Positions 35,381 to 49,835 of a stretch of DNA of 49,835 nucleotides are shown here, in pieces. A model generated the notes under the pieces. The model was not told where the DNA came from, did no database searches, and was given only the letters and a program-made list of their open reading frames with translations. Numbering within the stretch: position 1 is the first letter of the stretch; each line of letters begins with the position of its first letter. Both the position numbers and the translations under genes were made by a program. The stretch spans positions 1,417 to 51,251 of the forward strand of contig LFTF01000018.1 of the NCBI GenBank assembly GCA_001512945.1, read 5' to 3'. Origin of the DNA: Clostridiales bacterium DTU023. GTDB taxonomy: Bacteria > Bacillota > Clostridia > Saccharofermentanales > DTU023.

Positions 35381-35422
35381 TTGTTCGTTAAAAGATCAAA
35401 AGATCAGGTTATTAGCCTTCTC

Positions 35423-36772: not shown

Positions 36773-37113
36773 TCGTTCATCTCCTCTCATAACAAGATTT
36801 CCCAAGCGTTGCGCAGTTGCCTCCGCTTCATATCAGAGACAGCCACCGCTGACGGGTACTTATTAATTACACAAATCGTACCACAAGTAACAGTTGATTG
36901 CATTAGCAGTTTCTACAGGATCAAGCCGGTAAGACGTTTGATTTCATCTCGAACATGCCCTATATGAGGGGTAATTGTTCATTCTATTTGGTGATTTGAC
37001 ACAACATTTAACAAAATCAAACGCAAATCTACGTTTTTATATTGTAAAAGACAATCACCGATCATATCGAATTAACCATGGCGCCCTTGCAAAAATTAAC
37101 TCCAACCCCACTC

Positions 37114-38052
37114 TCACCAAAAGCCGAACGATCGCAGGACCACAATAAAGATATGCAGCGTGAAAAGAGAAACAAACGAAGTAACGGCGACAATTTGAGC
37201 AGCAAGCTCACCGTCACCGCCAAGTTCAAATGCCATCGCGGGAAGCGGAGTCGCGACCGGACCGCCGAACGCGACAAGCAATGAGATTAGCGTAATATCG
37301 CGAAACCCAAAAAGAATGGCCAGAGGTACTAACAAAATCGGAACAATGAGCAGGCGGACTGTCGTGGCAATTGAGATCCATAACTTATTGGCTTTCAAAC
37401 CCAGGAATGTCAGAGAAGATCCGGCAACGATCAACGACAGAGGCTTCGCGGCCTCAGAGATTTGCTCGAGAGGACGATAAAGAATATCCGGAAGTGGGAC
37501 ACGTGTCAGTTGGAAAAACATCGCAAAAGAAACGGCGATGACAATCGGATTCTTGAGAACACTAAGCAAAATGGAACCCACATTTGGTTTTGTCCCCTTC
37601 ATCATCTCAAAAATGATGACGCTCAAAATATTGAATAGAGGAACCACTACTGCGATTAGGATACTAGCGGGACCTATTTTGTCGGCTCCAAAAAGAAGTG
37701 TTCCATAAATAATCCCCAATAAACCAAAATTAGTCCGGTAGGCGCATTGCGCGACAACAGACGCGACAGGACGCGATGGAATTTTTTTCGCGGCGACTAT
37801 GACCCCGACGCCCGCCAGCACCAAGACACATACCACAGAAAATAGTATTGCTTTGAGATCGATCGCTTCGGCAAGATTCGTATTGTATACGCTGACAAAT
37901 AAGGAGACCGATATAAAAACTACAAAAACAATCCTGTTAAGCGGCTGTTCGATTGATTTTGGGATGATCTTTGTTTTGCCAAGCAATGCGCCGGCAAGAA
38001 TAAAAAAATAAAGTGGGAAAAGACTCTCAAGTGTCTCTAGCAAAACAGCCAT
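37114..38052 (-). CDS. AEC-family (auxin efflux carrier / malate-malonate permease type) membrane transporter
   Basis: About 310 aa with ~10 TM helices. The N-terminus LFPLYFFILAGALLGKTKII is typical of the Mem_trans/AEC family. Confidence 0.75.
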   Translation of the reverse strand: MAVLLETLESLFPLYFFILAGALLGKTKIIPKSIEQPLNRIVFVVFISVSLFVSVYNTNLAEAIDLKAILFSVVCVLVLAGVGVIVAAKKIPSRPVASVVAQCAYRTNFGLLGIIYGTLLFGADKIGPASILIAVVVPLFNILSVIIFEMMKGTKPNVGSILLSVLKNPIVIAVSFAMFFQLTRVPLPDILYRPLEQISEAAKPLSLIVAGSSLTFLGLKANKLWISIATTVRLLIVPILLVPLAILFGFRDITLISLLVAFGGPVATPLPAMAFELGGDGELAAQIVAVTSFVSLFTLHIFIVVLRSFGFW

Positions 38053-38075
38053 GTACTGAGCCCCGAATCATTTTC

Positions 38076-38114
38076 AAAAACCCCCCGAAGCCGGTCAAAC
38101 CGACTTTCAGGGGG
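38076..38114 (-). terminator. Intrinsic terminator-like hairpin after the cyclase gene, only 24 nt upstream of the AEC start
   Basis: Minus-strand CCCCCUGAA...UUCGGGGGG forms a 9-bp outer stem including one G-U, with an inner CGGU/ACCG helix, followed by UUUUU. Confidence 0.6.
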
Positions 38115-38180
38115 TCTGGTTTACGTAAGAAAAACAATCAGCGTCCGTTCGGCGATATGCCTGGCGAGCGCTGACCAAAA

Positions 38181-38978
38181 TTAATCCTCTTCGTCAAACG
38201 CTACGCAGCGGCAGAACGCAGACTCACCATACTGGAACTTCCAGGGGAATGTTCCGAGGATGAGGCGCTTGTTCAGCACTTTGTCAATCTCACCGCCAAT
38301 ATTCTCGACGTGAATGATTTCCCAAGGTTTCGGGAAAACTTCAATGTGCATGGCCTGGTATGTATCGGGCCATTTGTAGATCTCATTCAGCCCTTTGCCG
38401 TATTTCTCCTTCAAGTAAGCGTCGCAGCGCTCAGCTTCTTGAGGTTCCCAGTCGCGGATCTTCGTGTTCATCGGGTGGTCGGCGGAACCGCAATCGACCG
38501 CGATGTACTTGATCTCCATCTCTTTCATCCAGTCAGGGAAATCCATCGACGGACCGGGATGGCGTAGCATGTAGCGCCGCTCATCGGCCTCCGGTTGGTC
38601 AAATCCATACTTATGGTAGCCCGTATTGATGAAGATGATGTCACCTTTTTTTACTTCAACGCGGTCCATGATGTCCTGCGGCGTGTAGATCGACCAGTCC
38701 TCCGCGATATCAGAGATATCGACGACGACGCCAGGTCCAACTAGTTTATCCATCTCGAGCGAAGCGATATCGCGACCAGATGTGTCAAAATGCAACGGGC
38801 CGTCAAGGTGAGTTCCCACGTGATTTGAGGTTGTTATGAGCATGCCGTTCGCGCCGTTCGGCGAGAGGCGCTTGAAAAATTTGACTTGCAATGGCTCGTA
38901 AGTCGGCCACGGCGGGGTCAAATGGCTTGTGTTCTGTGTAAGGTCGTAAACCTTCATTTTGTCCCAGTTTTTAATCAT
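38181..38978 (-). CDS. Cyclase-family metal-dependent amidohydrolase (kynurenine formamidase / isatin hydrolase-like)
   Basis: Family signature HxGTHxDxPxH is present as NHVGTHLDGPLHF, with downstream His/Asp/Glu ligand candidates (GSADHP, HIE). GGAGGG RBS. Confidence 0.82.
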   Translation of the reverse strand: MIKNWDKMKVYDLTQNTSHLTPPWPTYEPLQVKFFKRLSPNGANGMLITTSNHVGTHLDGPLHFDTSGRDIASLEMDKLVGPGVVVDISDIAEDWSIYTPQDIMDRVEVKKGDIIFINTGYHKYGFDQPEADERRYMLRHPGPSMDFPDWMKEMEIKYIAVDCGSADHPMNTKIRDWEPQEAERCDAYLKEKYGKGLNEIYKWPDTYQAMHIEVFPKPWEIIHVENIGGEIDKVLNKRLILGTFPWKFQYGESAFCRCVAFDEED

Positions 38979-39056
38979 GATTTCCCTCCATTTTTTTCTG
39001 ATTTATTCCATTGTATTCAGAGTCCGGTTTAACGGACAAAACTGACAGTTTATTCA

Positions 39057-39079
39057 TAGCCGTCCGTATTGGACGGCTA
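39057..39079 (-). promoter_or_regulatory. Perfect 9-bp stem-loop between the DUF1116 gene and the cyclase gene
   Basis: Minus-strand UAGCCGUCC-AAUAC-GGACGGCUA. No U tract follows. It may be an RNA stability/processing element or a weak terminator. Confidence 0.4.
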
Positions 39080-39096
39080 ATATCTATTATAGCGCA

Positions 39097-40356
39097 CTAA
39101 TCAAGGAGTCCCTCGTCGTCAAGAAGCTCGACATATGCCTCTAGCGCATCCTCAAAACAATTCATCGGCGGGTAAACAACTCCGGCTCCCACCTGGCCTA
39201 CGCCGGCGTCCTTGTGGGCAATGCCGGTGTTAATTACGGGTAGAATCTGCGTCTCAACGACTCGACGGATGTCGATCCCTGTCGGTGAACCGCGGAAATT
39301 CATGGGTGGCAATTTGTAGCTGTTGCTCTCCTCTAGCGTTATCTCATACATTCTCGTCGTGTAATTGACAGCATCCTGAGGTGTGCCGCCGACGAACTGA
39401 ACAATAGCGGGTGCCGTTGCCATGGAAAATCCACCGATGCCGAGTGTCTCCGTTATACATGAATCGCCGATGTCGGGATTGGCGTCGGCCATGCTGTAAC
39501 CGGGAAAGTAAAGCCCATCGATGATAGCCGCCGGACCGGTGAACCAGCGATCGCCCAGGCCTGCGACGCGGATGCCAAACTCAGTGCCGTTACGGCACAT
39601 CGTGTAGACAACGGTCGAATGCTTAACGCCGCCAGCCGGATCCAGTGAAGCTTTCGCCGCAGGCATTGAAAGGTTAAGGAAGAAGTGATCATTCGAGTTC
39701 ATAAAATCGAACACTTTGACCTGATCCTCTTTCGAAGAATTTGTCTTTAGGATGCTCGATGCGATCTCGCGGATAAATAGTGAAGTCGCCGCCTTATTTC
39801 GGTTGTGGACTTCGTCTCCCATTTGAACCGCTTGGGCGATCATATTCTTAAGGTCGATGGGACCGTGAATTTCAATCGCTTCTTTCATGATGGGATAGAG
39901 CGTTTTCTCCATCCATTTGAGGTGCGTGATGACCTGATCGCTGAATGCGCCAAAACGCAATACCGTTCCCAGTCCCTCGTTCTGTGTACAGTAAGATTTG
40001 TTGCCGTATGTTTTATTTTCCAGAATAAAGACAGGCATGGACGCCGTGACGACACCAGCCATGGGACCGACCGCCGAATGATGGTGACACGGATCAAATT
40101 CAATGTCGCCCGAGGCGGCAAGCTTCTCTGCTTCCTCCGGTGTTGAGGCAAGTCCTTCGTAAATCAACCCGCCGATAACTGCGCCGCGAAGCGGTCCCGA
40201 CATTTTCTCCCATGTAATGGGAGGGCCTGCGTGCAACATCATATGTTTATGCATGCCCGGCACGACATCCTTCGCCACTCCCATCCCGATCAGTGTCGGC
40301 TGGGCGCTCTGTATGATCTCCAATACTTTCTTATTGGCTTCTTCAATGAAATCCAT
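39097..40356 (-). CDS. ylbE: DUF1116 protein, homologue of E. coli YlbE (AllG-type subunit)
   Basis: Same length (419 aa) as full-length E. coli YlbE as I remember it, with long collinear matches: LHAGPP, CHHHSAVGPMAGV, NEGLG.VLRFGA, FFLNLSM, NPD(I/M)GDS.ITET.GIGG, GIDIRRVVET...INTGIAHK.AG.GQ.GAG. Confidence 0.85.
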   Translation of the reverse strand: MDFIEEANKKVLEIIQSAQPTLIGMGVAKDVVPGMHKHMMLHAGPPITWEKMSGPLRGAVIGGLIYEGLASTPEEAEKLAASGDIEFDPCHHHSAVGPMAGVVTASMPVFILENKTYGNKSYCTQNEGLGTVLRFGAFSDQVITHLKWMEKTLYPIMKEAIEIHGPIDLKNMIAQAVQMGDEVHNRNKAATSLFIREIASSILKTNSSKEDQVKVFDFMNSNDHFFLNLSMPAAKASLDPAGGVKHSTVVYTMCRNGTEFGIRVAGLGDRWFTGPAAIIDGLYFPGYSMADANPDIGDSCITETLGIGGFSMATAPAIVQFVGGTPQDAVNYTTRMYEITLEESNSYKLPPMNFRGSPTGIDIRRVVETQILPVINTGIAHKDAGVGQVGAGVVYPPMNCFEDALEAYVELLDDEGLLD

Positions 40357-40451
40357 GATTCCCCTTCTTTCTTACATCTTGATTCTGTATATGTTCTATC
40401 TATTACAAACCATCATCCTCTAATGGGTAAGGGTTTGTCGCGACCTTGTGT

Positions 40452-40628
40452 TTACTTCGAGCTCTTCAACTTGCCAAGCAAAGAAGCCATCTTGCGGTTG
40501 CCCCCCGCAAAAGGTTTCCATTGGACGTGAATACTCGGAATGTCTTGTGCTTTGAGTTCTGTGTAGAAAGACTCAAGACCAATGTTAATGATTTTCAGAT
40601 CTTCTTTAAAAAGTTCATTGACTGACAT
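40452..40628 (-). CDS. 58-aa protein corresponding to the C-terminal tail of E. coli FdrA (separately encoded)
   Basis: Below the ORF-track size cutoff. ATG at 40628 is preceded by GGAAGGAG at 6 nt, 13 nt after the fdrA stop and in a different frame. Translation: MSVNELFKEDLKIINIGLESFYTELKAQDIPSIHVQWKPFAGGNRKMASLLGKLKSSK. It matches the remembered E. coli FdrA C-terminus ...VAVINIGLRSFALELQSASKPVVHYQWSPVAGGNKKLARLLERLQ. Confidence 0.65.
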   Translation of the reverse strand: MSVNELFKEDLKIINIGLESFYTELKAQDIPSIHVQWKPFAGGNRKMASLLGKLKSSK

Positions 40629-40641
40629 GATATGCTCCTTC

Positions 40642-42195
40642 CTATAAACCAGCTGTTTTCATGATACGGTCGACGAGGCGAACTGCCTGTGCATTCGAAG
40701 GCATCACAATCACGCCTGCTTGTTCCAAGTCTTCGATTGATTGTTTTAGGTCTTGCGGATCTTTATCGGTTCCCGTCACCGAAGCGACAGCTACGATATC
40801 TCTGCCCATGCTGGCAAGTTTTTCGCGGATTTTTATGACAGAATCCGCGACAGCCCCGGCAGGATCTTCGTGCGATCCGTAACCTAAAACGACGTCGACC
40901 AGGATGACCGCGGTCGTTTCATCGATATGTGATTCGAAAAATTCAGTGCGCGTCATCGGGTCAATCATCGGGTGTGGACGTCCACGAGTGAACTCATCCT
41001 CTCCGAGATCGAGACAAAGATGTCCCGCAAGACCTTCGAGTTTTGCCAGAGCACGATCTGGTGTCAGCGGGATATTCGAGTAGATCGGATAGTGTTCGCC
41101 CAGATACTTGATGGCCTCATCAGCCAGCGTACCGCCTGTAAAGAGGGCGCGAAGGTATTTCTGCTCCGGGGCGAGCCGCCCAGCCGCATCGTCAACTACA
41201 TGCGCGATCTCTTGCTCAGAGGCGTCAAATCCATCGAAATCGACTGGCGTCTGCTTGCGAAGGAGCGCGACAGCTTTCTTTGCGGCATCTTCCAAGCTCA
41301 CACACGGTACCGCGCCTGCCCGAAGAACTGATTCGGCGTTGCCGCCGATGAAGTCTATGACAACAGGTTTTGGTGAATCCGCCACAAGATCATAAATTTT
41401 CTTTTCAACAGATGGCGCGGGGGGTTTTGAAATGAGAAGGATGACGTGTGTCTCCGGGTCAGCTAATAGCGCCTCGATGCCTTGAATCATCATTAGACCA
41501 CCGATTTCTTCTCGAAGATCGCGTCCTCCTGTTCCGATTACTTGAGACAGTCCCTCGCCCAGCTGATCTATTAGAACCGTGACCTCTTGCGTGCCTGTAC
41601 CAGACGCGCCTACCACTCCGATTTTTCCACGCTTGACAACGTTGGCAAAACAAAGCGGAACGCCGTTAATAATCGCTGTCCCGCAGTCGGGTCCCATCAT
41701 AAGCAATCCCTTGTCGACCGCCATGCGCTTGAGTTTCAACTCATCTTCAATGGACACGTTGTCCGAAAACATCATGACGTTAAGCCCCTCACGCAAAGCA
41801 TTTTCCGCCTCGTCCGCGGCATATTGACCCGGCACTGAGAGCACTACGAAATTGGCTCCCGGCAAATACTCAATGGCTGAGCGCAATGTCGGCGGCTGAT
41901 AATCGCCCGCGTGGGATTCCTTCTTCTTGTTAATCTGCTCATCGAACGATGCAATAAGCTCGTCCATGTTTACTCGGCTTTCATCAAACTTCGCGGCAAT
42001 AAAAAGGTCATTGGGAGTAACCTTCTCAAGCTCAGGCAAAAACATTTCGAGCATCTTCACCAGATCGAGGTTCAGGTCCGTACCCATTCCAACCAGTACT
42101 TCCTCAACACCGTCGAGTTTCTTCATCTCACGCGAGATGAGCATCAGTGTGACTGAATCAAAATAGGCATTCTCACGTACAATAGTGTCAATCAT
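40642..42195 (-). CDS. fdrA: FdrA-like protein (succinyl-CoA-synthetase-alpha-like fold; AllF-type subunit), lacking the usual C-terminal tail
   Basis: Collinear with remembered E. coli FdrA: FDSV.LM.ISR, LNVMMFSDNV..EDE..LK, GLLMMGPDCGT, G.IGV.GASGTG.QE, GGRDL, SKPP, GRPHPMIDP. Start at ATG 42195 (MIDTIV; AAGGAG 8 nt upstream) rather than GTG 42204. Confidence 0.88.
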   Translation of the reverse strand: MIDTIVRENAYFDSVTLMLISREMKKLDGVEEVLVGMGTDLNLDLVKMLEMFLPELEKVTPNDLFIAAKFDESRVNMDELIASFDEQINKKKESHAGDYQPPTLRSAIEYLPGANFVVLSVPGQYAADEAENALREGLNVMMFSDNVSIEDELKLKRMAVDKGLLMMGPDCGTAIINGVPLCFANVVKRGKIGVVGASGTGTQEVTVLIDQLGEGLSQVIGTGGRDLREEIGGLMMIQGIEALLADPETHVILLISKPPAPSVEKKIYDLVADSPKPVVIDFIGGNAESVLRAGAVPCVSLEDAAKKAVALLRKQTPVDFDGFDASEQEIAHVVDDAAGRLAPEQKYLRALFTGGTLADEAIKYLGEHYPIYSNIPLTPDRALAKLEGLAGHLCLDLGEDEFTRGRPHPMIDPMTRTEFFESHIDETTAVILVDVVLGYGSHEDPAGAVADSVIKIREKLASMGRDIVAVASVTGTDKDPQDLKQSIEDLEQAGVIVMPSNAQAVRLVDRIMKTAGL

Positions 42196-42232
42196 TCCTC
42201 TCACTCCTTAACTAAATTTTACTTAAAATCAC

Positions 42233-43192: not shown

Positions 43193-44874
43193 TGGATCAA
43201 CTCCCTGATTTTCAAGGCGAGCTGGAAATTGAATGCCGTTTCAGGGTCGCGAAGATCGATCCCGTAAATATCGCGAATGCGGTTGATCCTGTAAATAATT
43301 GTATTGTAATGCGTAAACAGAACTTCCGACACTCGCTTAAGATTACCTCCCGAAGCAAAGTAAACGCGGACTGTCTCAAGCAAATCACCTCGCTGCTTGC
43401 TGTCGTACTCTTCAATTGAACTCAAAATCTCTTCTGCGTATGCCAACGCGTCGTCCCGAAGCAACGGATGTCCCAAAACACGCAGCAGGCCGAGATCGTC
43501 GAAGAACAGCACAGATGCATCTGTTTCACCACGACTTTGAAGTATTCGAACTGTCTGCTCCGCTTGCTGAAGACTTGTCGGCAAATAACGGTATGAACGA
43601 ACACAAGAACCAACTCCTATGTAGGTATAGTGGAGCGCTTCTTTTTCCTCAATGCATTTCAAAACAATCTCTATGAAACGTTTGCACAAAGCGTGACGTC
43701 CTTCAAGCGGGCAATCGCTTTCAAACTGTAAAAGAAAGACGGCGCGATCGCTCTTTCTCGTCACGAGGAAATAACCCTCATAGTCTCTTTTTATAAGATT
43801 GGTCAGATTAAGCAGACTGGTGTTCAGATTTTTGATCATTCGAGAATTGTTGGGCGTCATTTGGAGATGCTGTTCATGATCCATGACAAGCACCACAATC
43901 TGGCTGGGCAGATCGGGATGAAAAAGATAATAGTCGGCACTTTCTATAGCTTTACTTTGTTCGCGCGGATCATCATTTAAGAGTTGCTCCAGAAAAGTTG
44001 TTTGATGAACATTTTCACGCTCGATAAGCGCAGTTCTGTTCAAAATGTCGAGCGCTATCAGGGAGGAAGTCGACTCAATGACAAAAAGATCCTGAGGACG
44101 CAAAGAACCATCCGTGTCCCACAAATAAATACTTCCGTAATGCATGTTGTCGAAATATATCGGGAGAGTAAACCGCCTTACTCCATTCTCCCCGATGGAT
44201 ACTTCCTGACTTCTATTCTTTGCCAAACGGTGATCGAGACGTGCAAAGTCTGCTGCCTCAAGGGCACGGTAATCATGCTCAATCAAACTTGCCTTATCTT
44301 GATCGGGACAGTAAAAATGAGAATCCCTAAATATGTCGTCACGGATGACGACAGGTGTTTGTGTCGCCAGATAAATCTGTTCGGCGATAGCCTGCATACC
44401 TTCATGTCTGAGCATAATTTCACGGACTGTGTGATTGAACTCGTTGATCCGGCTCAACAGACGCGTCTGCTCACCGATAATGTGGTTGAAGATTTCCTTG
44501 ATCAGCTCGCCGTATGGAACGTTTTGTGGAATTCTTATAATTGGAAAGTCGAGATCGTCCGCAAGATGAATAACACTTTCAGGTACTTCACTGATATAAC
44601 GTTGTGTTTTAATCCCCATCCCGCACACATTCTTCGACCGGAGTTGAGGGATCAGTCGCTCGAACGCGACGATATCATCACTAAATATATAGGCAGTTGT
44701 CAGCAGAAACTCCCCAGGTCTCACCCAATCGATAATATCAGGGACCTCCATGACATTGACCGACATAATACTGTTGTCTAGGCCTTTGCGACCCGCCAGC
44801 ACTTCCGCCTCCTGCAATAATCCCACTTGCAAGATGTCACGCAACTGAATTGTAAGTTTTTTTTGGTCTGACAT
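43189..44874 (-). CDS. pucR: PucR-family transcriptional regulator (purine catabolism regulator-like N-domain + C-terminal HTH)
   Basis: PucR-type N-terminus (LRDILQVGLLQEAEVLAGRKGLDNSIMSVNVMEVPDIIDWVRPGEFLLTTAY) and C-terminal HTH (LKRVSEVLFTHYNTIIYRINRIRDIYG). AGAGGA RBS. First gene of the minus-strand operon. Confidence 0.85.
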   Translation of the reverse strand: MSDQKKLTIQLRDILQVGLLQEAEVLAGRKGLDNSIMSVNVMEVPDIIDWVRPGEFLLTTAYIFSDDIVAFERLIPQLRSKNVCGMGIKTQRYISEVPESVIHLADDLDFPIIRIPQNVPYGELIKEIFNHIIGEQTRLLSRINEFNHTVREIMLRHEGMQAIAEQIYLATQTPVVIRDDIFRDSHFYCPDQDKASLIEHDYRALEAADFARLDHRLAKNRSQEVSIGENGVRRFTLPIYFDNMHYGSIYLWDTDGSLRPQDLFVIESTSSLIALDILNRTALIERENVHQTTFLEQLLNDDPREQSKAIESADYYLFHPDLPSQIVVLVMDHEQHLQMTPNNSRMIKNLNTSLLNLTNLIKRDYEGYFLVTRKSDRAVFLLQFESDCPLEGRHALCKRFIEIVLKCIEEKEALHYTYIGVGSCVRSYRYLPTSLQQAEQTVRILQSRGETDASVLFFDDLGLLRVLGHPLLRDDALAYAEEILSSIEEYDSKQRGDLLETVRVYFASGGNLKRVSEVLFTHYNTIIYRINRIRDIYGIDLRDPETAFNFQLALKIRELIQ

Positions 44875-44889
44875 CTATGTTGTCCTCTT

Positions 44890-44901
44890 ACAATCTATTT
44901 T
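44890..44901 (-). promoter_or_regulatory. Copy 1 of the shared 12-mer AAAATAGATTGT (in the pucR leader, abutting the SD)
   Basis: Plus strand acaatctatttt reads on the minus strand as AAAATAGATTGTaagaggacaacatagATG. Confidence 0.45.
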
Positions 44902-45227
44902 ACACAAATTCACAAACTGATTAATTAGCTGCTAGTAACAGCGATGTAATCATTGTACGTGATATCGATGTAATAATGTTACAGGAGCTTTCATCATGCT
45001 TGCAATTTTATTGCCATATTGGCAAAAACTGCATTTGTTTTGCTTTTTCCGCATGATCGAGCACTGTCACACATTAACAAACTAACAAAAGACTATTTGA
45101 CAGGGAGCAGATTAGCCAAACGTCTTTATTGCGTCATTAAAGATACTTTTTTGTATATGTTTATCAATATATCGTTTGAACCGTAAACTATTTTGTAAGT
45201 GATTACAACGAATTTCGCTTACATAAG

Positions 45228-45236
45228 TGATAGAAT
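45228..45236 (+). promoter_or_regulatory. Candidate extended -10 promoter element (TGATAGAAT) for the Mo-hydroxylase operon
   Basis: TGnTAGAAT lies 98 nt upstream of the GTG start. There is no good -35 at 16-18 nt, so this is tentative. Confidence 0.3.
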
Positions 45237-45247
45237 TGTATTAATTA

Positions 45248-45274
45248 TGCACAGCACCCTAATCGTGCTGTGCA
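45248..45274 (+). promoter_or_regulatory. Perfect 10-bp inverted repeat TGCACAGCAC-N7-GTGCTGTGCA upstream of the Mo-hydroxylase operon
   Basis: Seen directly in the sequence. It lies 60 nt upstream of the GTG start and no T tract follows. It could be a dimeric-regulator operator or a 5'-UTR hairpin. Confidence 0.45.
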
Positions 45275-45297
45275 GTTGAACAAAGTACCTATCTGCA

Positions 45298-45309
45298 AAA
45301 ATAGATTGT
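45298..45309 (+). promoter_or_regulatory. Copy 2 of the shared 12-mer AAAATAGATTGT (in the Mo-hydroxylase leader)
   Basis: Plus strand reads aAAAATAGATTGTtttgctgaaaaAAGGAGGtttttcGTG. It has the same orientation relative to its gene as copy 1. Confidence 0.45.
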
Positions 45310-45333
45310 TTTGCTGAAAAAAGGAGGTTTTTC

Positions 45334-46185
45334 GTGCTAAGTCAATTTGATTATGTCAAACCGCTTGTATTGGACGAAGCCCTGGATGTGTTGTCCCGCG
45401 ATACGGACACGTACATTCTGGCCGGCGGTACAGATCTTCTGATTATGCTACGCCATGAGCTGATCAACGCCCGCCATATCCTAGACATCAAGGCCATCCC
45501 TGAATTGAAGGTCTTTTCGTATGTTGAAGGTAAGGGACTGGAGATCGGCGCAAACGTCGTCGTCAACAAGCTCATCGAATCCGAGGTTGTCAGGGATAAT
45601 TACAAGGCGCTGCATGACGCGGCGTCCTGTCTCGCTTCCTACCAGCTTAGAAATCGGGCCACGCTCGTTGGAAACATTTGCAATGCTTCTCCCGGGGCAG
45701 ATCTTCCGCCCGCGCTTTTGATCTACAATGCGACCGTAAAGATCGCGAGCAAAGATGGCGTTAGGACAGTGCCGCTCAAGGAATTTTTTACGGGAGTCAA
45801 GAAGACCCAGCTCACAAAACATGAACTCGTTGTCTCCGTATTCCTTCCCGAACCAGGTCAAGACGATGACAGTTGCTATCTGCGGCAGACGCGCCTCAAG
45901 GGACACGACCTTTCAACAGTCGGTGTGGCCTGCCGTATCGATAAAAACGGGAAAGCTTGCATCGGTATCAACGCCGTTGCCATCACTCCGCTTCGCTTGA
46001 CAGCTCTGGAAGATGAACTGAACGCCAAGGGAATCACGGAGGAATCCATCCTATGGGCAGCTGACGAAATCAAAAACCACATCCGTCCCATATCTGATGT
46101 ACGTTCTTCGAAAGAATACCGGTTGCACATGGCGGGCGTTCTATTCAAGCGCTGCATGATGCAATTGATGGACAAGGAGGCATAA
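45334..46185 (+). CDS. Molybdenum hydroxylase FAD-binding (medium) subunit, CoxM/XdhB-like
   Basis: FAD_binding_5-type N-terminus (FDYVKPLVLDEALDVL...ILAGGTDLL), RNRATLVGNICNASPGAD, and a CO-dehydrogenase flavoprotein C-domain. GTG start with AAGGAGG 6 nt upstream. Confidence 0.9.
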   Translation: MLSQFDYVKPLVLDEALDVLSRDTDTYILAGGTDLLIMLRHELINARHILDIKAIPELKVFSYVEGKGLEIGANVVVNKLIESEVVRDNYKALHDAASCLASYQLRNRATLVGNICNASPGADLPPALLIYNATVKIASKDGVRTVPLKEFFTGVKKTQLTKHELVVSVFLPEPGQDDDSCYLRQTRLKGHDLSTVGVACRIDKNGKACIGINAVAITPLRLTALEDELNAKGITEESILWAADEIKNHIRPISDVRSSKEYRLHMAGVLFKRCMMQLMDKEA

Positions 46186-46188
46186 GAC

Positions 46189-46737
46189 ATGACTAACATA
46201 GATGATAAAGACATGTGCGCCATGGAAGCGGCGCATATCAATTCAAAAAACCGGCAAGTCCTTCTGACTTGCAGAGTCAACGGACAGGTTGTGGTCGAAG
46301 AAATCGATCCCACGATGTTACTTCTCCATTTCCTTCGCGACAGGCTCAAGCTGTTCGGCGCCAAGGAAGCGTGTGGAGAGGGAGAATGCGGTGCCTGCAC
46401 CGTCATCCTCAACGGCGAAGCCGTTACGTCTTGTCTTATCCTGGCCATTGAGGCCCAGGGCAGCGAGATTACTACTGTCGAAGGTTTATCCAAGAACGGT
46501 GAACTCAGCATCCTCCAACAGCAGTTCGTTTTCGAGGACGCCCTGCAGTGCGGGTTCTGCACGCCTGGTATGCTGATGTCGGCACGCGCGCTCCTTGACC
46601 GCAATCCTGATCCCACAGACGAAGAGATTATGGAAGGAATGGCGGGTAACCTCTGCCGTTGCACCGGTTATCAACAGATTTTTAATGCAGTCAAATGTGC
46701 TGCTAGATTAGAGAGAGAGGAGTTGAACCGTTCATGA
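46189..46737 (+). CDS. Molybdenum hydroxylase 2x[2Fe-2S] (small) subunit, CoxS/XdhC-like
   Basis: Both cluster motifs are present: CGEGECGACTV...C and CGFCTPGM...CRCTGY. AAGGAGG RBS. Confidence 0.93.
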   Translation: MTNIDDKDMCAMEAAHINSKNRQVLLTCRVNGQVVVEEIDPTMLLLHFLRDRLKLFGAKEACGEGECGACTVILNGEAVTSCLILAIEAQGSEITTVEGLSKNGELSILQQQFVFEDALQCGFCTPGMLMSARALLDRNPDPTDEEIMEGMAGNLCRCTGYQQIFNAVKCAARLEREELNRS

Positions 46738-49145
46738 CTCATTCTGAATTAGATCAGTGCACATATCAGGCACATGGCAATTACGAGTCATCTTACAAAC
46801 ATGTCGGCCAGCCGTATGTTCGAAAAGATGCCCTTGAAAAAGTAACAGGCCAGGCACGTTATGCGTTTGACCTCGAGATGCCCGGTATGCTTTATGCCAA
46901 AACACTGCATTCGCCGCATGCCAGAGCAAAGATTGTTAGGATCGATAAGAGCAAAGCAGAGGCGCTATTAGGTGTCAAAGCCGTCGTGTGCGGAGAAGAC
47001 TGCGACACGCGAGTTGGTCTGTACATGCAGGACAAGCTCGCAATCGCAACGTGCGAAACGCGCTACCAGGGAGAAGTCGTTGCGGCCGTTGCGGCCACAA
47101 CAGAGGCAATCGCCGAGCGCGCCGTTTCCTTGATCGAAGTCGAGTACGAAGTACTTGAACCTGTCCGGAATCTGGACGATGCGCTAGCTGCCAAAATCCT
47201 CGTTCACGAGAACATCGCCGAAATCAAGCACGTTGAGGGTGTCTTTTTCCCGCAACCGGAATCCAACATCGCAAGCCTCAACAGAAGTCTAAAGGGTGAT
47301 CCGGATGCCGGTTTCGCAGATGCAGACCTTGTCCTTGAGAACAAGTTCACACTACCTGCCGTCGCGCACGTTCCTCTTGAAACGCATGTGGCGATCGTCG
47401 CGGCCGACCCATTCACCGATCGCATCCGTATCTGGTCGTCAGCGCAGTCACCCTTTGCTTTGCGGCAATTGATGGCGTGGAGCTTTAACGTTAAGGAATC
47501 CGACATTGAGGTTCATGTCCCCTACGTCGGTGGCGCTTTCGGCGGTAAGGCCGGTATCCATCTCGAACCACTGATTGCGATACTCTCGCGCGCCAGCGGC
47601 GGCGCTCCCGTCAAGCTTCGCATGACGCGTGAACAGGAATTCAACTACCTGCCAACACGTGCCGGCATGAGAGGCAAAATAAAGACGGGTGTCAAAAAAG
47701 ATGGCACGATCGTCGCATCAGATATCGTCTACGACTGGGACAGCGGTGCGTATGCGGACTACGGCGTCAACGTAGGTAAGACAGCTGTTTACGGAGGTCT
47801 AGGCCCCTACGACATCGACAACGCAGCGATCGTATCGAACACGGTTTACACGAACAAAGTGTTCAGTACCGCTTACCGCGGTTTCGGTCACCTTGAAACC
47901 TTGTGGACAGTTGAACGTCAGATGGACATTCTGTCACAGAAACTCGGCATCGATCCCTATGAATTCCGCATGAAAAATATCCTGCGTCCCGGTGCCACAA
48001 CCATTTCCGGCGAGCTTGTCACTGAAAGTACAGGCAGTCCTTCCGATTGTCTCTCGGCCGTCGTTAAAGAGATTGGTTGGACGGGACGCAAAAGCGAAGA
48101 AGATCGTAAACGTGAGTGGAAAACAGGCAAAATACGGGGCAAAGGATTTGCCATGATCCAGAAAGCGCCCGCGATGCCACCCAGCACAGCGACAGCAGTT
48201 ATTTTGCAAATGGCGGGTGACGGTCACATCAAGATGATGATAGGCGCGATCGATTACGGGCAAGGCGCCCTTACGGCGATGGCTCAAATAGTCGCGCAGG
48301 AACTCGATATCCCGATGGAGATGGTCGAAGTCGTCACAGAGACCAATACACAGACGAACCCATACGATTGGAACACGGTCGCCTCGAAGTATACCTTCAT
48401 GGGCGGCAACGCAACGATCCAGGCATGCGGCAAAATGCTTGACCAGATGAAAGACATCGCCGGTCAGGCACTGCACTGCGCACCTGAATTCTTGACACAC
48501 GGCGGTGGTTACATCTACAACGTGCATCGCCCCGACCGCAGGGTTGCGTACAAGGATATGTCGCTTGGATACGCGTACCCCGATGGCAATGGCATAGGAG
48601 GACCGCTTATTGCTCACGGCATCTGCATGGCAGACGGTCTGACCAACCTGGATCCCAAAACAGGCGCAGGAAGTCCGGCGCTTGCCTGGACGTTCGGCGC
48701 ACATGCTGTCGATATCGAAGTCGATGTCGAGTCTGGCAACATTACTGTTTTGAAAGTTGCCTCGGCATTTGACATCGGTCAAGTCATCAACGAGCGAATG
48801 GTTTATGGACAGGTTGTGGGCGGCGTAATGCAGGGCATCGGCTCTGCCATCCTCGAAGGATATAAATTTAGCCCTGATAACGTCCTTATGAACCCGTCAT
48901 TTACAGACAACAAGATTCCGACGATGAAGGACATGCCGGTTGAGGTCGTCCCGATCTATATCGAGAACCCACAGCTGAATGGCCCCTATGGAGCCCGAGG
49001 TGTGGCGGAGCATACGATGATTTCGATCCCGTCGGCCATCGGAAACGCGCTCTATGACGCGCTTGGAATCAATTACTACCATCTACCTCTCACACCTGAG
49101 AACGTCGCGCTCGGCATTATCAGTGGAGAAAAAGATATTTATTAA
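46734..49145 (+). CDS. Molybdenum hydroxylase molybdopterin-binding (large) subunit, xanthine-oxidase family, substrate unknown
   Basis: a/b-hammerhead N-domain (VRKDALEKVTGQARYAFD), VGGAFGGKAG, AYRGFGH, and the C-terminal catalytic-Glu motif ARGVAEH. Its ATGA overlaps the small-subunit stop. Confidence 0.92.
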   Translation: MTHSELDQCTYQAHGNYESSYKHVGQPYVRKDALEKVTGQARYAFDLEMPGMLYAKTLHSPHARAKIVRIDKSKAEALLGVKAVVCGEDCDTRVGLYMQDKLAIATCETRYQGEVVAAVAATTEAIAERAVSLIEVEYEVLEPVRNLDDALAAKILVHENIAEIKHVEGVFFPQPESNIASLNRSLKGDPDAGFADADLVLENKFTLPAVAHVPLETHVAIVAADPFTDRIRIWSSAQSPFALRQLMAWSFNVKESDIEVHVPYVGGAFGGKAGIHLEPLIAILSRASGGAPVKLRMTREQEFNYLPTRAGMRGKIKTGVKKDGTIVASDIVYDWDSGAYADYGVNVGKTAVYGGLGPYDIDNAAIVSNTVYTNKVFSTAYRGFGHLETLWTVERQMDILSQKLGIDPYEFRMKNILRPGATTISGELVTESTGSPSDCLSAVVKEIGWTGRKSEEDRKREWKTGKIRGKGFAMIQKAPAMPPSTATAVILQMAGDGHIKMMIGAIDYGQGALTAMAQIVAQELDIPMEMVEVVTETNTQTNPYDWNTVASKYTFMGGNATIQACGKMLDQMKDIAGQALHCAPEFLTHGGGYIYNVHRPDRRVAYKDMSLGYAYPDGNGIGGPLIAHGICMADGLTNLDPKTGAGSPALAWTFGAHAVDIEVDVESGNITVLKVASAFDIGQVINERMVYGQVVGGVMQGIGSAILEGYKFSPDNVLMNPSFTDNKIPTMKDMPVEVVPIYIENPQLNGPYGARGVAEHTMISIPSAIGNALYDALGINYYHLPLTPENVALGIISGEKDIY

Positions 49146-49199
49146 AACTTCGTGTCGTTGATCCCACAATCAAAACGGGATCAGATGTAATACTGATTA

Positions 49200-49246
49200 C
49201 AGATCCGCTGCTGATTTTCAAAGATCAGTAGCGGATCTGCTTTTTA
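49200..49246 (+). terminator. Rho-independent terminator of the Mo-hydroxylase operon
   Basis: CAGATCCGCTGCTGAT-tttcaaag-ATCAGTAGCGGATCTG forms a 16-bp stem with one G-U. After a single C it is followed by TTTTT. A smaller hairpin at 49159-49183 precedes it. Confidence 0.85.
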
Positions 49247-49421
49247 TACGGTACCGCCAATAGTTTTTCGCATATTGACCTAGATTATTTGGCAGCATAA
49301 GGAATTCATAATATTACTTGTAAACTCGATGGTTTTGATGATATGTTTTTAAAAGGCAGTGTAGTTAAGAAAGGCTATTAGAAGCGGTCTACAGATAAGG
49401 CTCCGATGAAGGACAATATAG

Positions 49422-49835
49422 ATGAACGAAAAGATTAAGCTCAGGTACGGTGTTGATGAAAAATTGCCCTTTTCGGATACATTCTTTTACGGACTGCAAT
49501 GGTTAGCCGTCAGCCTACCCACCATTGTCGTTTTGGGCCAGATAGTCGCCAACCTCCATTTTTCTGATCCGCAAGCTCAAGTGAATTACATGCAAAAAAT
49601 CTTCTTTGTCATGGCGCTCAGCATGTTGCTTCAGCTCTTTTTTGGACACCGCCTGCCGGCTGTCGTCGGGCCAGCTTCTATTCTTCTGGTTGCTATTACA
49701 GCCAGTCAGGGCGCAAGTTTAGACAGTATCTACAGCTCTATCTTAATCGGCGGCGCGCTCCTGACGTTATTCAGTGTGAGTGGTCTTTTTTCAAAATTGG
49801 AAAAACTCTTTACCCGCCAGGTAGTCGCCACCATC
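49422..49835 (+). CDS. NCS2/NAT-family nucleobase permease, N-terminal 138 codons (runs off right edge)
   Basis: Edge-truncated, so absent from the ORF track. ATG 49422 has GAAGGA 8 nt upstream. Translation: MNEKIKLRYGVDEKLPFSDTFFYGLQWLAVSLPTIVVLGQIV...FGHRLPAVVGPASILLVAI. The hydrophobic helices and the G.Q-type first-TM motif are typical of xanthine/uracil-type permeases. Confidence 0.65.
   Translation, partial: MNEKIKLRYGVDEKLPFSDTFFYGLQWLAVSLPTIVVLGQIVANLHFSDPQAQVNYMQKIFFVMALSMLLQLFFGHRLPAVVGPASILLVAITASQGASLDSIYSSILIGGALLTLFSVSGLFSKLEKLFTRQVVATI

Follow-up and report, generated by a model that had tools for sequence, protein, structure and literature searches.

We analysed a window of 49,835 nucleotides (the whole stretch of DNA under study) from Clostridiales bacterium DTU023, in which two divergent sets of genes leave a common control region (Table 1). 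All the genes that an earlier note on this DNA had described are real and lie where it placed them. The locus makes up the left two-thirds of an island of ~30 kb that extends beyond the window end.

Table 1. Genes and other features of the island within the window
Feature	Coordinates	Strand	Details
tRNA-Arg(CCT) gene	35237-35313		after the 35352..35382 hairpin
Terminator-like hairpin	35352..35382	-	14-bp stem then T-run; closes the island's minus-strand side
UraA-type NCS2 nucleobase:cation symporter	35423..36805	-	Pfam Xan_ur_permease 312 bits
AEC (Mem_trans) transporter	37114..38052	-	Pfam PF03547, 70 bits
Cyclase-family PF04199 metal-dependent amidohydrolase	38181..38978	-	Pfam 115 bits
AllG (DUF1116)-like carbamoyltransferase subunit	39097..40356	-	Pfam AllG 336 bits
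58-aa ORF, FdrA/AllF C-terminal tail	40452..40628	-	NF004760 positions 507-555
AllF (FdrA)-like subunit	40642..42204	-	CoA_binding + Ligase_CoA domains; NF004760 503 bits
AllH (DUF2877)-like subunit	42233..43192	-	Pfam AllH 90 bits
PucR-family regulator	43189..44874	-	PucR, GGDEF_2, HTH_30 domains
Divergent control region	44875..45333	.	459 bp
Mo-hydroxylase FAD subunit	45334..46185	+	FAD_binding_5 + CO_deh_flav_C domains
Mo-hydroxylase [2Fe-2S] subunit	46189..46737	+	Fer2_2 + Fer2 domains
Mo-hydroxylase molybdopterin subunit	46734..49145	+	best NCBIfam match XdhA 457 bits
Terminator-like hairpin	49200..49239	+	18-bp stem; 3' of hydroxylase operon
Second, divergent NCS2 permease, 5' part	49422..49835	+	full protein 440 aa; no NAT motif

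The pucR gene is the first of the minus-strand unit and overlaps allH by 4 nt. Gaps of 28 nt (allH-allF) and 13 nt (allF-tail ORF) follow, and beyond the tail ORF they widen to 95, 118, 128 and 308 nt. The tight junctions reported through the cyclase gene are thus found at the head of the unit but not downstream. The control region has exactly the length given for it earlier; within it are a 24-nt repeat in tandem (44935-44982) and a motif, CGATGTAAT, that is present three times and is not conserved in orthologous control regions. The genes for hydroxylase, ring opening and transferase are probably under PucR control. The second NCS2 gene had been grouped with the divergent hydroxylase genes; it is co-directional with them but probably does not belong to their operon, given the strong hairpin between.

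The 35423..36805 permease carries the NAT motif ENTGVLVLTR, with a first-position Glu as in E. coli UraA (E290), and is thus of the ENxG type, in contrast to the QN of XanQ and UacT. Identity is 40% with E. coli UraA and 28% with XanQ and UacT. Among NCBIfam equivalogs it scores best with uracil permease (330 bits, under the 477 cut-off), and we predict that it is a uracil/thymine uptake system.

The AllG-like protein is 45% identical to E. coli AllG/YlbE, and the AllH-like protein matches E. coli YlbF in the C-terminal 119 aa alone, at 36% identity. The AllF-like protein exceeds the NF004760 cut-off of 433 bits, matches model positions 1-494 of 555, and is 38% identical to E. coli FdrA, of which it lacks the last ~50 residues. 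The 58-aa ORF lies in a different frame from AllF and has its own GGAAGGAG ribosome-binding site. Its counterpart is separate, never fused and immediately 3' of allF in 67 of 67 related loci, and was also predicted by gene callers in L001-L004 and L009. The ORF appears to be a conserved separate subunit that forms the AllF C-terminal tail. We considered whether it could be a frameshift remnant and ruled this out on its conservation as a separate gene in all 67 loci. Purified E. coli AllFGH interconverts an acyl-urea plus phosphate with an amide plus carbamoyl phosphate (PMC11326118), and the assignment to oxamate carbamoyltransferase given in the earlier note is correct.

By sequence, the three-subunit hydroxylase belongs to the xanthine-oxidase family, and all its subunits score below the xanthine dehydrogenase (XDH) equivalog cut-offs. 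The XdhA score of the Mo subunit falls short of the 780-bit cut-off, so that it does not qualify as an XDH equivalog; among solved structures, 4-hydroxybenzoyl-CoA reductase alpha, CoxL and quinoline oxidoreductase come nearest. We predict a uracil/thymine 6-hydroxylase resembling uracil dehydrogenase.

The cyclase motif HVGTHLDGxLH is invariant in orthologues and aligns with HTGTHIDAPFH of KynB. In a Foldseek search of the PDB, 31 of 31 significant matches were PF04199 structures, and the top TM-score (0.58) was with isatin hydrolase; the structure model has pLDDT <50 at residues 19-62, which span the active-site motif. In the cyclase, both the metal-binding motif and the fold of KynB and isatin hydrolase are preserved.

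Conservation across related loci

We surveyed the neighbourhoods of the cyclase in 80 species-level genomes, anchored on orthologues 65-91% identical and counting neighbours within 10 kb; 49 of the 80 loci had full flanks. AllG was near the cyclase in 77 of 80 loci (49 of 49 with full flanks) and AllF in 73 (48 of 49). The Mo subunit orthologues (33 of 49 full-flank loci) are often directly adjacent to the cyclase gene, and UraA-type permeases, mostly with the E-type motif, occur in 34 of the 49 loci and 42 of the 80. A PucR gene heads the trio in ~44 of 80 loci. The loci span several phylum labels, and gene order varies while content recurs. The earlier note had proposed to compare co-occurrence with chance; the cyclase-AllG-AllF linkage, in 73-77 of 80 species-level loci, is far above it. 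The survey also supports the note's view of a coupling between the trio, a ring-amide hydrolase family and a Mo-hydroxylase. Gene content, family membership and cross-species conserved linkage are what we observe directly. The cyclase orthologue group comprises ~590 stretches in species-representative genomes, and the island is kept in several hundred species, mostly anaerobic bacteria.

Other components are less constant. An amide hydrolase is present in 32 of 80 loci; it may be of the AS, CN_hydrolase or cytosine-deaminase-like family, and these are interchangeable. The cytosine-deaminase-like proteins (12 loci) score 404 bits against a cut-off of 438. Carbamate kinase was found in 17 of 80 loci (TIGR00746, 373 bits, above the 358 cut-off). 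About 20 loci carry a trio of thiolase-like, DUF35-like and 220-aa proteins in place of the amidase and CoA-transferase, a role outside our proposed model; there the cyclase is the sole hydrolase of the cluster. The AEC transporter, counted as part of the module in the earlier note, occurs in 1 of 80 loci and is therefore not part of the conserved module; it is a lineage-specific accessory, perhaps for a carboxylate such as malonate. Orthologues of the second NCS2 permease occur in 0 of 80 loci, and this gene is lineage-specific.

The module is present in the window as described earlier but is incomplete there. Downstream of the window lie a biotin-protein ligase, a LysR regulator and then an operon of mdcA-like, mmdA-like, OAD-gamma, BCCP, OAD-beta and, as the final gene, AS-amidase genes. 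The island thus continues with a (methyl)malonyl-CoA decarboxylase that pumps Na+, accompanied by a malonate CoA-transferase of the MdcA type and by the amidase. The MdcA-like protein matches TIGR01110 over its full length (787 bits; cut-off 789), the MmdA-like carboxyltransferase scores 858 bits and OAD-beta 475 bits against a cut-off of 191. The amidase and the malonate operon supply the key clue to the pathway. LysR probably controls this malonamate/malonate operon, which, having its own regulator, could in principle serve free malonate in this genome. Decarboxylase parts lie within 10 kb in only 8 of 80 loci, and malonate handling takes three non-orthologous forms in independent genomes: MdcA with an Mmd-type decarboxylase (the DTU023 island); CoA-transferase III with MmdA/BCCP/OAD-beta between the cyclase and hydroxylase genes (Carboxydothermus islandicus L059, Sporomusa rhizae L072); and, in L066 and L076, a system of the Malonomonas type that includes PF06857, the malonate-specific ACP.

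The window had been described as free of the classical allantoin genes. This extends past its edge, where no classical allantoin/oxalurate gene was found, and across the full island (AllB, AllC, AllD, AllE and GlxK); in the 80 neighbourhoods AllC, AllD, AllE and GlxK homologues were likewise absent and AllB gave one weak AllB-like match only. Carbamate kinase, also noted as missing, is absent from the whole ~30-kb island but occurs in some related clusters.

A proposed pathway and its alternatives

We propose, with a probability of roughly 0.58, that the island encodes an anaerobic, energy-conserving catabolism of uracil-type pyrimidines to acetate, CO2 and NH3, a route whose every substrate and reaction we infer. 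The UraA-type permease would import uracil or thymine, and the Mo/FAD/2Fe-2S hydroxylase would oxidise C6 to give barbiturate (or 5-methylbarbiturate). The cyclase-family metal hydrolase, the signature enzyme of the module, would open the barbiturate ring to ureidomalonate (N-carbamoylmalonamate), the oxalurate homologue one carbon longer. AllH/AllF/AllF-tail/AllG, a paralogue of E. coli oxamate carbamoyltransferase, would then convert ureidomalonate and phosphate to malonamate and carbamoyl phosphate, from which carbamate kinase would form ATP, NH3 and CO2 using ADP. Other genomes have the kinase gene within the cluster; DTU023 would need to encode it elsewhere than in the ~30-kb island, which leaves its ATP-yielding step a prediction. 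The amidase just outside the window would release NH3 from malonamate to leave malonate. The MdcA-type transferase would form malonyl-CoA using acetyl-CoA, and the biotin-dependent Na+-pumping MmdA/BCCP/OAD-beta/gamma decarboxylase would regenerate acetyl-CoA and release CO2. The net conversion would be uracil to acetate + 2 CO2 + 2 NH3 + 2[H], and the gain would be one ATP plus a Na+ gradient. No described route of this kind was found in the literature searched, in keeping with the suggestion in the earlier note of a conserved, uncharacterised nucleobase-catabolic module.

The same enzyme logic might act on another ring, purine-derived or five-membered (hydantoin, imidazolone or parabanate type), with oxalurate, oxamate and oxalate as products and independent malonate genes; we consider this unlikely. 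The PucR family has a historical tie to purine catabolism. A Lachnospiraceae variant without a nearby Mo-hydroxylase has an 8-oxoguanine-deaminase-like gene together with an NCS2 permease of the Q type (xanthine/urate-like), a hint of purine-derived input. Oxalurate/oxamate is the one substrate pair so far characterised for AllFGH (PMC11326118). The family III dicarboxylate CoA-transferase, found in 32 of 80 loci, scores 369 bits against acetyl-CoA:oxalate CoA-transferase and 300-309 against formyl-CoA transferase; its scores against oxalate, glutarate and mesaconate transferases are equally good. Against this reading, no oxalyl-CoA decarboxylase was seen in the 80 neighbourhoods, which are also devoid of allantoin genes, whereas malonate-specific parts (MdcA, malonate-decarboxylase ACP, MmdA-type) are found within the cluster or next to it, in several arrangements that bear no relation to one another. 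The UraA type of the conserved permease, the cytosine-deaminase-like neighbours and a Mo subunit that is no XDH equivalog also favour uracil-type input. Still less probable is a pyrimidine-to-malonate route with the hydrolases swapped, in which a variable AS amidase, CN_hydrolase or amidohydrolase-superfamily protein opens barbiturate and the cyclase acts on the transferase product as the terminal amidase or another amide hydrolase (e.g. for a formamide). The best-known PF04199 members act on linear amides (kynurenine formamidase), the cyclase gene always follows allG and could thus act after the transferase, and in Anaerolineaceae-labelled loci the AS amidase shares an operon with the hydroxylase genes. 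However, the amidase of our island ends the malonate CoA-transferase/decarboxylase operon, and in L011 and L012 the hydroxylase genes come right after the cyclase, without the trio. Isatin hydrolases, which give the top TM-score and match in length, open lactams. The cyclase is favoured as the ring opener because it is the sole hydrolase in the thiolase-variant clusters (~13-20 loci).

An ordinary E. coli-type allantoin/oxalurate branch, with a true oxamate carbamoyltransferase fed by allantoin-pathway enzymes from elsewhere in the genome and a normal xanthine dehydrogenase, is very improbable. The trio does fall into the AllF, AllG and AllH families of Pfam and is 38-45% identical to its E. 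coli counterparts, and Bacillus purine catabolism likewise combines a PucR regulator with an XO-family hydroxylase and with NCS2 permeases. This branch is hard to reconcile with the missing allantoin genes, the sub-threshold hydroxylase subunits and an obligate cyclase-family partner that has no counterpart in E. coli; moreover, E. coli AllG is 43-54% identical to the 77 cyclase-linked AllGs, whereas the window AllG is 56-86% identical to them. That the genes are adjacent by chance or co-transfer, with unrelated functions, is scarcely credible and already contradicted by the conservation data. Nothing specific favours it, although the 95-308 nt gaps and two separate regulators would permit independent transcription; it is at odds with a linkage that recurs under several phylum labels despite varying gene order.

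Comparison with known systems

E. coli AllFGH with carbamate kinase AllK (PMC11326118) represents the same three protein families and the same predicted reaction type as our pathway. Identity is 36-45%, the gene order here is allH-allF-tail-allG rather than allF-allG-allH, and AllF is divided between a protein of 517-520 aa and a peptide of 56-58 aa. A carbamate kinase neighbours the genes, as AllK does, in the 17 loci noted above. Our loci have an obligate cyclase-family neighbour and no allantoin genes, and the predicted substrate is one carbon longer (ureidomalonate/malonamate). The Bacillus subtilis PucR regulon (pucABCDE xanthine dehydrogenase) has in common the PucR regulator, an XO-family multi-subunit hydroxylase and NCS2 permeases; here, however, the hydroxylase falls outside the XDH equivalogs, the conserved permease is of the uracil type, and uricase, allantoinase and allantoate genes are absent.

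Isatin hydrolase and kynurenine formamidase (PDB 4j0n, 5nmp, 4co9) have the fold and HxGTHxDxPxH metal-binding motif of the cyclase, at 16-19% identity in structural alignment. Isatin hydrolase opens a cyclic amide and is of the same length (~260-265 aa); it is a precedent for lactam opening within the PF04199 family. Our locus has no tryptophan/isatin context, and the cyclase orthologues, unlike these enzymes, form an extremely well conserved group (65-91%) that is linked to AllFGH and a Mo-hydroxylase.

With two Na+-translocating decarboxylases, the Mad malonate decarboxylase of Malonomonas rubra and the methylmalonyl-CoA decarboxylase MmdABCD, the island has in common the MdcA/MadA-type alpha subunit, biotin carrier, OAD-beta Na+ pump, OAD-gamma and dedicated biotin-protein ligase. 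Unlike Mad, it is without the malonate-specific ACP and its maturation genes and has an MmdA-type acyl-CoA carboxyltransferase instead, so it probably operates via free malonyl-CoA. Unlike in Na+-translocating decarboxylases, an amidase is joined into the operon.

The closest chemical parallel, reportedly worked out by Soong, Ogawa and Shimizu in 2001-2002 in Rhodococcus erythropolis (uracil/thymine dehydrogenase, barbiturase and ureidomalonase), is the oxidative pyrimidine pathway of aerobic actinomycetes. This pathway is listed among the known routes (PMC12507026). The claim that the gene combination matches no textbook pathway does not hold for the chemistry, which other enzyme families appear to perform here, with a phosphorolytic step. 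The first two predicted steps, uracil to barbiturate to ureidomalonate, are alike, as are the malonate end product and an amidase-signature enzyme. The predicted ring opener here is a PF04199 cyclase-family metal hydrolase, whereas that of the oxidative pathway belongs to the AtzD/TrzD/barbiturase 'Toblerone-fold' family. Ureidomalonate would be cleaved here with phosphate to carbamoyl phosphate and malonamate, whereas the oxidative pathway hydrolyses it to urea and malonate; the predicted phosphate cleavage would therefore release nitrogen without urease and make an ATP gain possible. Coupling to Na+-pumping malonyl-CoA decarboxylation is likewise predicted only here, and the hosts are mostly strict anaerobes. 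If our proposal is true, the island encodes an energy-conserving variant of the oxidative pyrimidine pathway, assembled from non-homologous enzymes.

Gene content of the island

The ORF listing and profile searches recovered every gene that the earlier note had named when it described this stretch, from its sequence, as a PucR-headed module. On the minus strand, a strong terminator-like hairpin stands at the end of the UraA-like permease gene, and a tRNA-Arg gene lies beyond it. Left of position 35000 the window carries housekeeping genes throughout (rimP-nusA-infB, truB, ribF, lgt, the dcw cluster, ftsZ and nrdR). Two FtsW/RodA/SpoVE-family genes lie in the cell-division region, one of them outside the dcw cluster proper; two such genes are ordinary in spore-forming Bacillota.

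Features of the window and of the island past its end
Feature	Position	Strand	Evidence or remark
FtsW/RodA/SpoVE-family gene	15426-16943		cell-division region
FtsW/RodA/SpoVE-family gene	24032-25219		cell-division region
UraA-like NCS2 permease	35423-36805	minus	308-nt gap to the AEC gene
AEC transporter	37114-38052	minus	
Cyclase	38181-38978	minus	PF04199, 115 bits (gathering cut-off 23.1)
Palindrome	39057-39079		allG-cyclase gap
AllG/DUF1116 gene	39097-40356	minus	Pfam AllG, 336 bits
58-aa ORF	40452-40628	minus	frame differs from allF; NF004760 positions 507-555
AllF/FdrA gene	40642-42204	minus	NF004760, 503 bits (cut-off 433), model positions 1-494 of 555 only
AllH/DUF2877 gene	42233-43192	minus	Pfam AllH, 90 bits; 4-nt overlap with pucR
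pucR	43189-44874	minus	PucR, GGDEF-like and HTH_30 domains
Tandem 24-nt direct repeat	44935-44982		divergent spacer
CGATGTAAT	45200-45211		one of three copies in the spacer
FAD subunit of hydroxylase	45334-46185	plus	xanthine-oxidase family
2Fe-2S subunit of hydroxylase	46189-46737	plus	xanthine-oxidase family
Mo subunit of hydroxylase	46734-49145	plus	xanthine-oxidase family
Terminator-like hairpin	49200-49239	plus	18-bp stem; 3' of the hydroxylase genes
Second NCS2 permease		plus	last feature of the window (first 138 codons); 440 aa in full
Operon gene 1, MdcA-type malonate CoA/ACP-transferase			TIGR01110, 786.8 bits over full length (cut-off 789.15)
Operon gene 2, MmdA-type acyl-CoA carboxyltransferase			858 bits, below equivalog cut-off of 999
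Operon gene 3, OAD-gamma			TIGR01195, 36.6 bits (cut-off 36.05)
Operon gene 4, biotin carrier (BCCP)			
Operon gene 5, OAD-beta Na+ pump			TIGR01109, 475 bits (cut-off 191)
Operon gene 6, amidase-signature (AS) amidase			Pfam Amidase; nearest PDB entry a peptide amidase

We recovered the part of the island beyond the window by exact-match look-ups of the Mo subunit and the MdcA-like protein. They led to the same locus on digester-metagenome contigs and in the NCBI MAG GCA_012510955.1, labelled "Clostridiaceae bacterium". Past the window end, the complete permease gene is followed by genes for a biotin-protein ligase and a LysR regulator, by a six-gene operon on the opposite strand, and then by unrelated genes (a hydrolase, a MatE transporter, a CBS protein and rplL). 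The full island encodes no carbamate kinase, allantoinase, allantoate amidohydrolase, ureidoglycine hydrolase or ureidoglycolate dehydrogenase, and homologues of E. coli AllC, AllD, AllE and GlxK were found in none of the 80 neighbourhoods surveyed below. The claim that the classical allantoin genes are lacking was borne out: the full island holds no complete classical set just past the window edge, and none was found in the 80 neighbourhoods.

The 459-bp divergent spacer contains a tandem direct repeat and three copies of CGATGTAAT, one of them inverted. Because CGATGTAAT was absent from all 38 orthologous upstream regions examined, it is not a family-wide operator, and we claim no PucR operator in this spacer. 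Scanning the entire window against Rfam with gathering thresholds revealed a tRNA but no riboswitch or other RNA element. A promoter scan returned sites no more frequently than in shuffled sequence and was left unused. A perfect palindrome with a 10-bp stem (TAGCCGTCCG tat TGGACGGCTA) lies in the 118 nt that separate allG from the cyclase gene. On the coding (minus) strand it has no T-run 3' of it, and it may be an element for RNA processing or stability.

Conservation and variants of the cluster

Orthologues of the cyclase form a remarkably conserved group, 65-91% identical across Clostridia, Tissierellia, Negativicutes, Moorellaceae and Erysipelotrichaceae, and they also occur in MAGs labelled Anaerolineaceae, Bacteroides, Thermotogaceae, Atribacterota and Coriobacteriales. 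Searching a single genome for each GTDB species gave at least ~590 confirmed cyclase stretches. We surveyed the best 80 of these at least ~590 loci with ±10 kb of flanking sequence, clustered all ORFs and used tblastn with a set of island proteins to score presence. Full flanks were available for 49 of the 80 loci.

Proteins encoded near the cyclase gene in the surveyed loci
Protein	Loci (of 80)	Loci with full flanks (of 49)	Remark
AllG	77	49	
AllF	73	48	
AllH	~60		by clustering; fast-evolving
PucR	~44		by clustering
UraA-type permease	42	34	
Mo subunit	41	33	
Family III CoA-transferase	32		
Thiolase-domain protein	20		
Carbamate kinase	17		TIGR00746, 373 bits (cut-off 358)
AS amidase	13		
Cytosine-deaminase-like amidohydrolase	12		
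CN_hydrolase	9		
Any decarboxylase part	8		MmdA, OAD-beta, MdcA or malonate-decarboxylase ACP

These counts support the proposed linkage of the cyclase to the trio (the AllH, AllF and AllG genes) and the Mo-hydroxylase. The AEC transporter, which the earlier note had counted in the module, is present in one of the 80 related loci and is incidental; the second NCS2 permease is present in none. A role for the AEC protein as a conserved malonate transporter was ruled out by the same count, and MdcF-specific models gave no match.

The most complete clusters resemble a pathway map. In Carboxydothermus islandicus (locus L059), genes for XdhC, PucR, AllH, AllF, the tail ORF, AllG, a CoA-transferase, the cyclase and carbamate kinase are followed by those for a CN_hydrolase, a nitroreductase-like protein, MmdA, a small protein, BCCP, OAD-beta and the FAD, FeS and Mo subunits. 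Sporomusa rhizae (L072) has a near-identical gene set. Alkaliphilus metalliredigens QYMF (L009) combines the hydroxylase, permease, PucR, AllH, AllF, a 56-aa ORF, AllG, cyclase, CN_hydrolase and CoA-transferase. A Malonomonas-type malonate decarboxylase, including the malonate-specific ACP (PF06857), comes after the cyclase in L066 and L076, and in L011 and L012 the cyclase is directly followed by the three hydroxylase genes, without the trio.

Other loci differ in copy number, host label or accessory genes. Two cyclase copies flank carbamate kinase in L045 (8177-11149), and one Tissierellia contig (L043 and L044) has a second cyclase copy without the trio. MAGs labelled Anaerolineaceae or Chloroflexota (L013, L014, L017-L023 and L025) encode cyclases 87-91% identical to that of the window in a similar cluster, which points to recent horizontal transfer or to binning or taxonomy-label problems. 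XdhC, YqeC, a 271-aa protein and a MobA-like nucleotidyltransferase adjoin the cluster in L030, L034, L035, L038, L039 and L068 and are absent from the window's island. YqeC marks molybdenum hydroxylases that depend on selenium, so in some lineages the cluster's hydroxylase may be of this kind. A nitroreductase-family flavoprotein, the family to which RutE of the Rut pyrimidine pathway belongs, recurs in or beside the cluster (L059, 12623-13120; L051-L054, L077 and L082).

Two variants recur. In ~13-20 of the 80 loci (L062-L064, L067, L069, L074, L075, L078, L080, L083, L085, L087 and L089-L092; for example L063, 3648-6003), three genes lie directly upstream of allH-allF-allG-cyclase-hydroxylase and stand in place of the amidase and CoA-transferase. 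They encode a 220-aa protein with no match in Pfam, NCBIfam or PDB, a 398-aa thiolase-domain protein and a 121-aa ChsH2/DUF35-like zinc-ribbon/OB protein. The second variant is found in gut isolates (Lacrimispora indolis, Clostridium spp., Lachnospiraceae and Agathobaculum; L051-L054 and L056). It joins PucR, AllHFG and the cyclase to 8-oxoguanine-deaminase-like and cytosine-deaminase-like amidohydrolases, DUF6198, a short-chain-fatty-acid transporter, carbamate kinase, a nitroreductase-like protein and an NCS2 permease with a Q-type (xanthine/urate-like) NAT motif. No Mo-hydroxylase is encoded within 10 kb, and the input substrate of this variant may be other than uracil.

Predicted enzymes and route

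Purified AllFGH converts oxalurate, an acyl-urea, and phosphate reversibly into oxamate, an amide, and carbamoyl phosphate (PMC11326118). The window encodes the AllF, AllG and AllH families together, and the trio would, by relationship, split an acyl-urea with phosphate into an amide and carbamoyl phosphate. Identities to the E. coli proteins are 45% for AllG, 38% for AllF and 36% for AllH (over 119 aa, the C-terminal third only). E. coli AllG is 43-54% identical to the cyclase-linked AllGs, which are 56-86% identical to the window AllG; that E. coli AllG falls outside this range suggests that the cyclase-linked proteins are a separate orthologue group. That 17 related clusters include carbamate kinase agrees with carbamoyl phosphate being a product here too.

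AllF is a single 555-aa polypeptide in E. coli, whereas the cyclase-linked clade encodes a 517-520-aa protein and a separate 58-aa tail. The tail ORF has its own Shine-Dalgarno sequence and is separate after allF, never fused, in 67 of 67 related loci, which rules out a frameshift or pseudogene. The separation of the C-terminal ~50 residues of FdrA/AllF is a conserved gene fission, and the predicted transferase of this clade is therefore a four-polypeptide system.

All hydroxylase subunits scored below the xanthine dehydrogenase equivalog cut-offs (bits/cut-off: Mo 457/780, 429/916 and 403/784; FAD 192/287; FeS 181/217). The enzyme is a three-subunit member of the xanthine-oxidase family and, by these scores, no xanthine dehydrogenase equivalog. 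The nearest solved relatives of its Mo subunit are 4-hydroxybenzoyl-CoA reductase, CoxL and quinoline oxidoreductase. The residue after GGxFGxK is Glu in bovine xanthine dehydrogenase, Ala in the window Mo subunit and Gln in E. coli XdhA and XdhD. We down-weighted the active-site argument as weak evidence, because E. coli XdhA likewise lacks the Glu. The window permease is 40% identical to UraA versus 28% to XanQ and UacT and scores below the uracil permease equivalog cut-off (330 versus 477). Its NAT motif, E316-N-T-G, corresponds to E290-N-I-G in UraA and to Q-N in XanQ and UacT. On the Glu-Asn motif and closest similarity, we class the conserved permease as UraA-type.

The cyclase shares family, metal motif and fold with kynurenine formamidase and isatin hydrolase (PF04199), the latter being a lactam-opening member of the family. 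Its motif HVGTHLDGPLH (HxGTHxDxPxH) is invariant in the orthologues and aligns with that of KynB. All 31 Foldseek matches with E ≤ 0.001 are PF04199 structures (TM-scores 0.42-0.58); the structure model, of moderate quality (pLDDT 74, active-site loop <50), was used for fold membership only. Unlike kynurenine formamidase, the cyclase lacks a tryptophan-to-kynurenine context: it scored 53.5 bits against the arylformamidase equivalog TIGR03035 (cut-off 223), and no kynurenine-pathway neighbours were seen in the 80-locus survey. The PF04199 hydrolase occupies the position expected of a barbiturase. No AtzD/TrzD-family barbiturase was found among the island proteins scanned, all of which matched other families, and none was recognised in the partly annotated 80-locus survey.

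We assigned ring opening to the cyclase as a prediction because it is universal in the clusters, the other hydrolases being variable, because it is paired with the hydroxylase alone in L011 and L012, because it is the sole hydrolase in the thiolase-type clusters, and because the AS amidase shares an operon with the malonate genes in the window's island. The roles could be swapped, with a variable hydrolase such as the AS amidase opening the ring, but we consider this unlikely. The AS amidase is exchanged for a CN_hydrolase in other genomes; given the transferase trio, its predicted substrate is malonamate, not ureidomalonate.

Four observations bear on the route. The trio would supply the transferase. 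After it, the clusters encode interchangeable, unrelated amide hydrolases (AS or CN_hydrolase), then a dicarboxylate CoA-transferase (family III or MdcA), and then either a biotin-dependent (methyl)malonyl-CoA-type decarboxylase or a true malonate decarboxylase. Such non-orthologous replacement at a fixed position strongly suggests an amide and then its dicarboxylic acid, malonate or methylmalonate, as the intermediates. Before the transferase there would act a hydroxylase, of a family attacking the carbon beside a ring nitrogen, and a metal amidohydrolase. The uracil-type permease and the recurrent cytosine-deaminase-like neighbours would place the substrate among the pyrimidines.

The sole common metabolite we identified as compatible with all four observations is uracil (or thymine), which would be oxidized to barbiturate. 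Ring opening of barbiturate would give ureidomalonate (oxalurate plus one CH2), and its phosphorolysis malonamate and carbamoyl phosphate. Malonate as the end product is indicated indirectly, since genes for malonate CoA-transferase and decarboxylase occur not only in the island but also in independent related clusters. In net terms, uracil would yield acetate, 2 CO2, 2 NH3 and 2[H], and the cell would gain one ATP plus a Na+ gradient. We hold the general enzyme logic to be probably correct, and the specific substrates to be somewhat favoured.

Significance and relation to known systems

Pyrimidine breakdown in strict anaerobes is currently ascribed to the reductive route. To our knowledge, the oxidative route via barbiturate is known from few aerobes only, and its genes are partly known. 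We give roughly even odds (about 0.5) to the full proposal: an undescribed fermentative pyrimidine pathway in several hundred mostly anaerobic species, with a cyclase-family "barbiturase", a four-polypeptide AllFGH-type "malonamate carbamoyltransferase", ATP formation via carbamoyl phosphate, a Na+ gradient via malonyl-CoA decarboxylation, and thiolase-linked and hydroxylase-less Lachnospiraceae forms. If true, it would assign a function to a very conserved gene set of several hundred species, whose hosts include Clostridia from digesters and sediments, thermophilic Clostridia, and isolates from human or animal guts, among them Anaerotruncus, Flavonifractor and Lacrimispora. It would show that energy can be drawn from nucleobases by way of carbamoyl phosphate and a sodium pump. 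A second family of substrates would be added to the AllFGH transcarbamylases, a class discovered recently, and a new ring-opening activity to the cyclase/isatin-hydrolase family. Common annotations, among them "kynurenine formamidase", "acyl-CoA synthetase FdrA" and "xanthine dehydrogenase", would be corrected. The route could also be relevant to the microbial fate of uracil analogues.

As listed by a group that studies nucleobase catabolism in anaerobes, the known pyrimidine routes are the oxidative, reductive, Rut and URC pathways, and the known purine routes the oxidative, xanthinase and reductive ones (PMC12507026, 2025); none of these uses the island's genes. A full-text literature search, with most subscription journals outside its reach, turned up no published account of the cluster or of any phosphorolytic route via barbiturate. 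The idea of an uncharacterised nucleobase-degradation module survives in substance, with the amendments that the AEC gene does not belong to it, that it extends past the window and that it has a textbook analogue.

The island is distinct from the E. coli-type allantoin/oxalurate locus, in which AllFGH lies in an allantoin-catabolic context (allB, allC, allD and allE) with the carbamate kinase gene allK in the operon, and from the Bacillus-type purine regulon. It has all four parts of the Na+-translocating biotin decarboxylases (OAD-beta, OAD-gamma, biotin carrier and carboxyltransferase). With the Malonomonas-type (Mad) malonate decarboxylase it shares a near-cut-off MdcA, but it lacks the malonate-specific ACP. 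Among known systems, the one that comes nearest in chemistry is the oxidative pyrimidine pathway of aerobic actinomycetes, in which a Mo/FAD/Fe-S uracil-thymine dehydrogenase, an AtzD/TrzD-family barbiturase and an amidase-signature ureidomalonase yield urea and malonate. In contrast to that pathway, the ring-opening enzyme predicted for the island belongs to another family, its third step would be phosphorolytic instead of hydrolytic, and it would be coupled to energy-conserving malonate decarboxylation. We regard the island as best explained by a new form of the oxidative pyrimidine pathway, one that would conserve energy.
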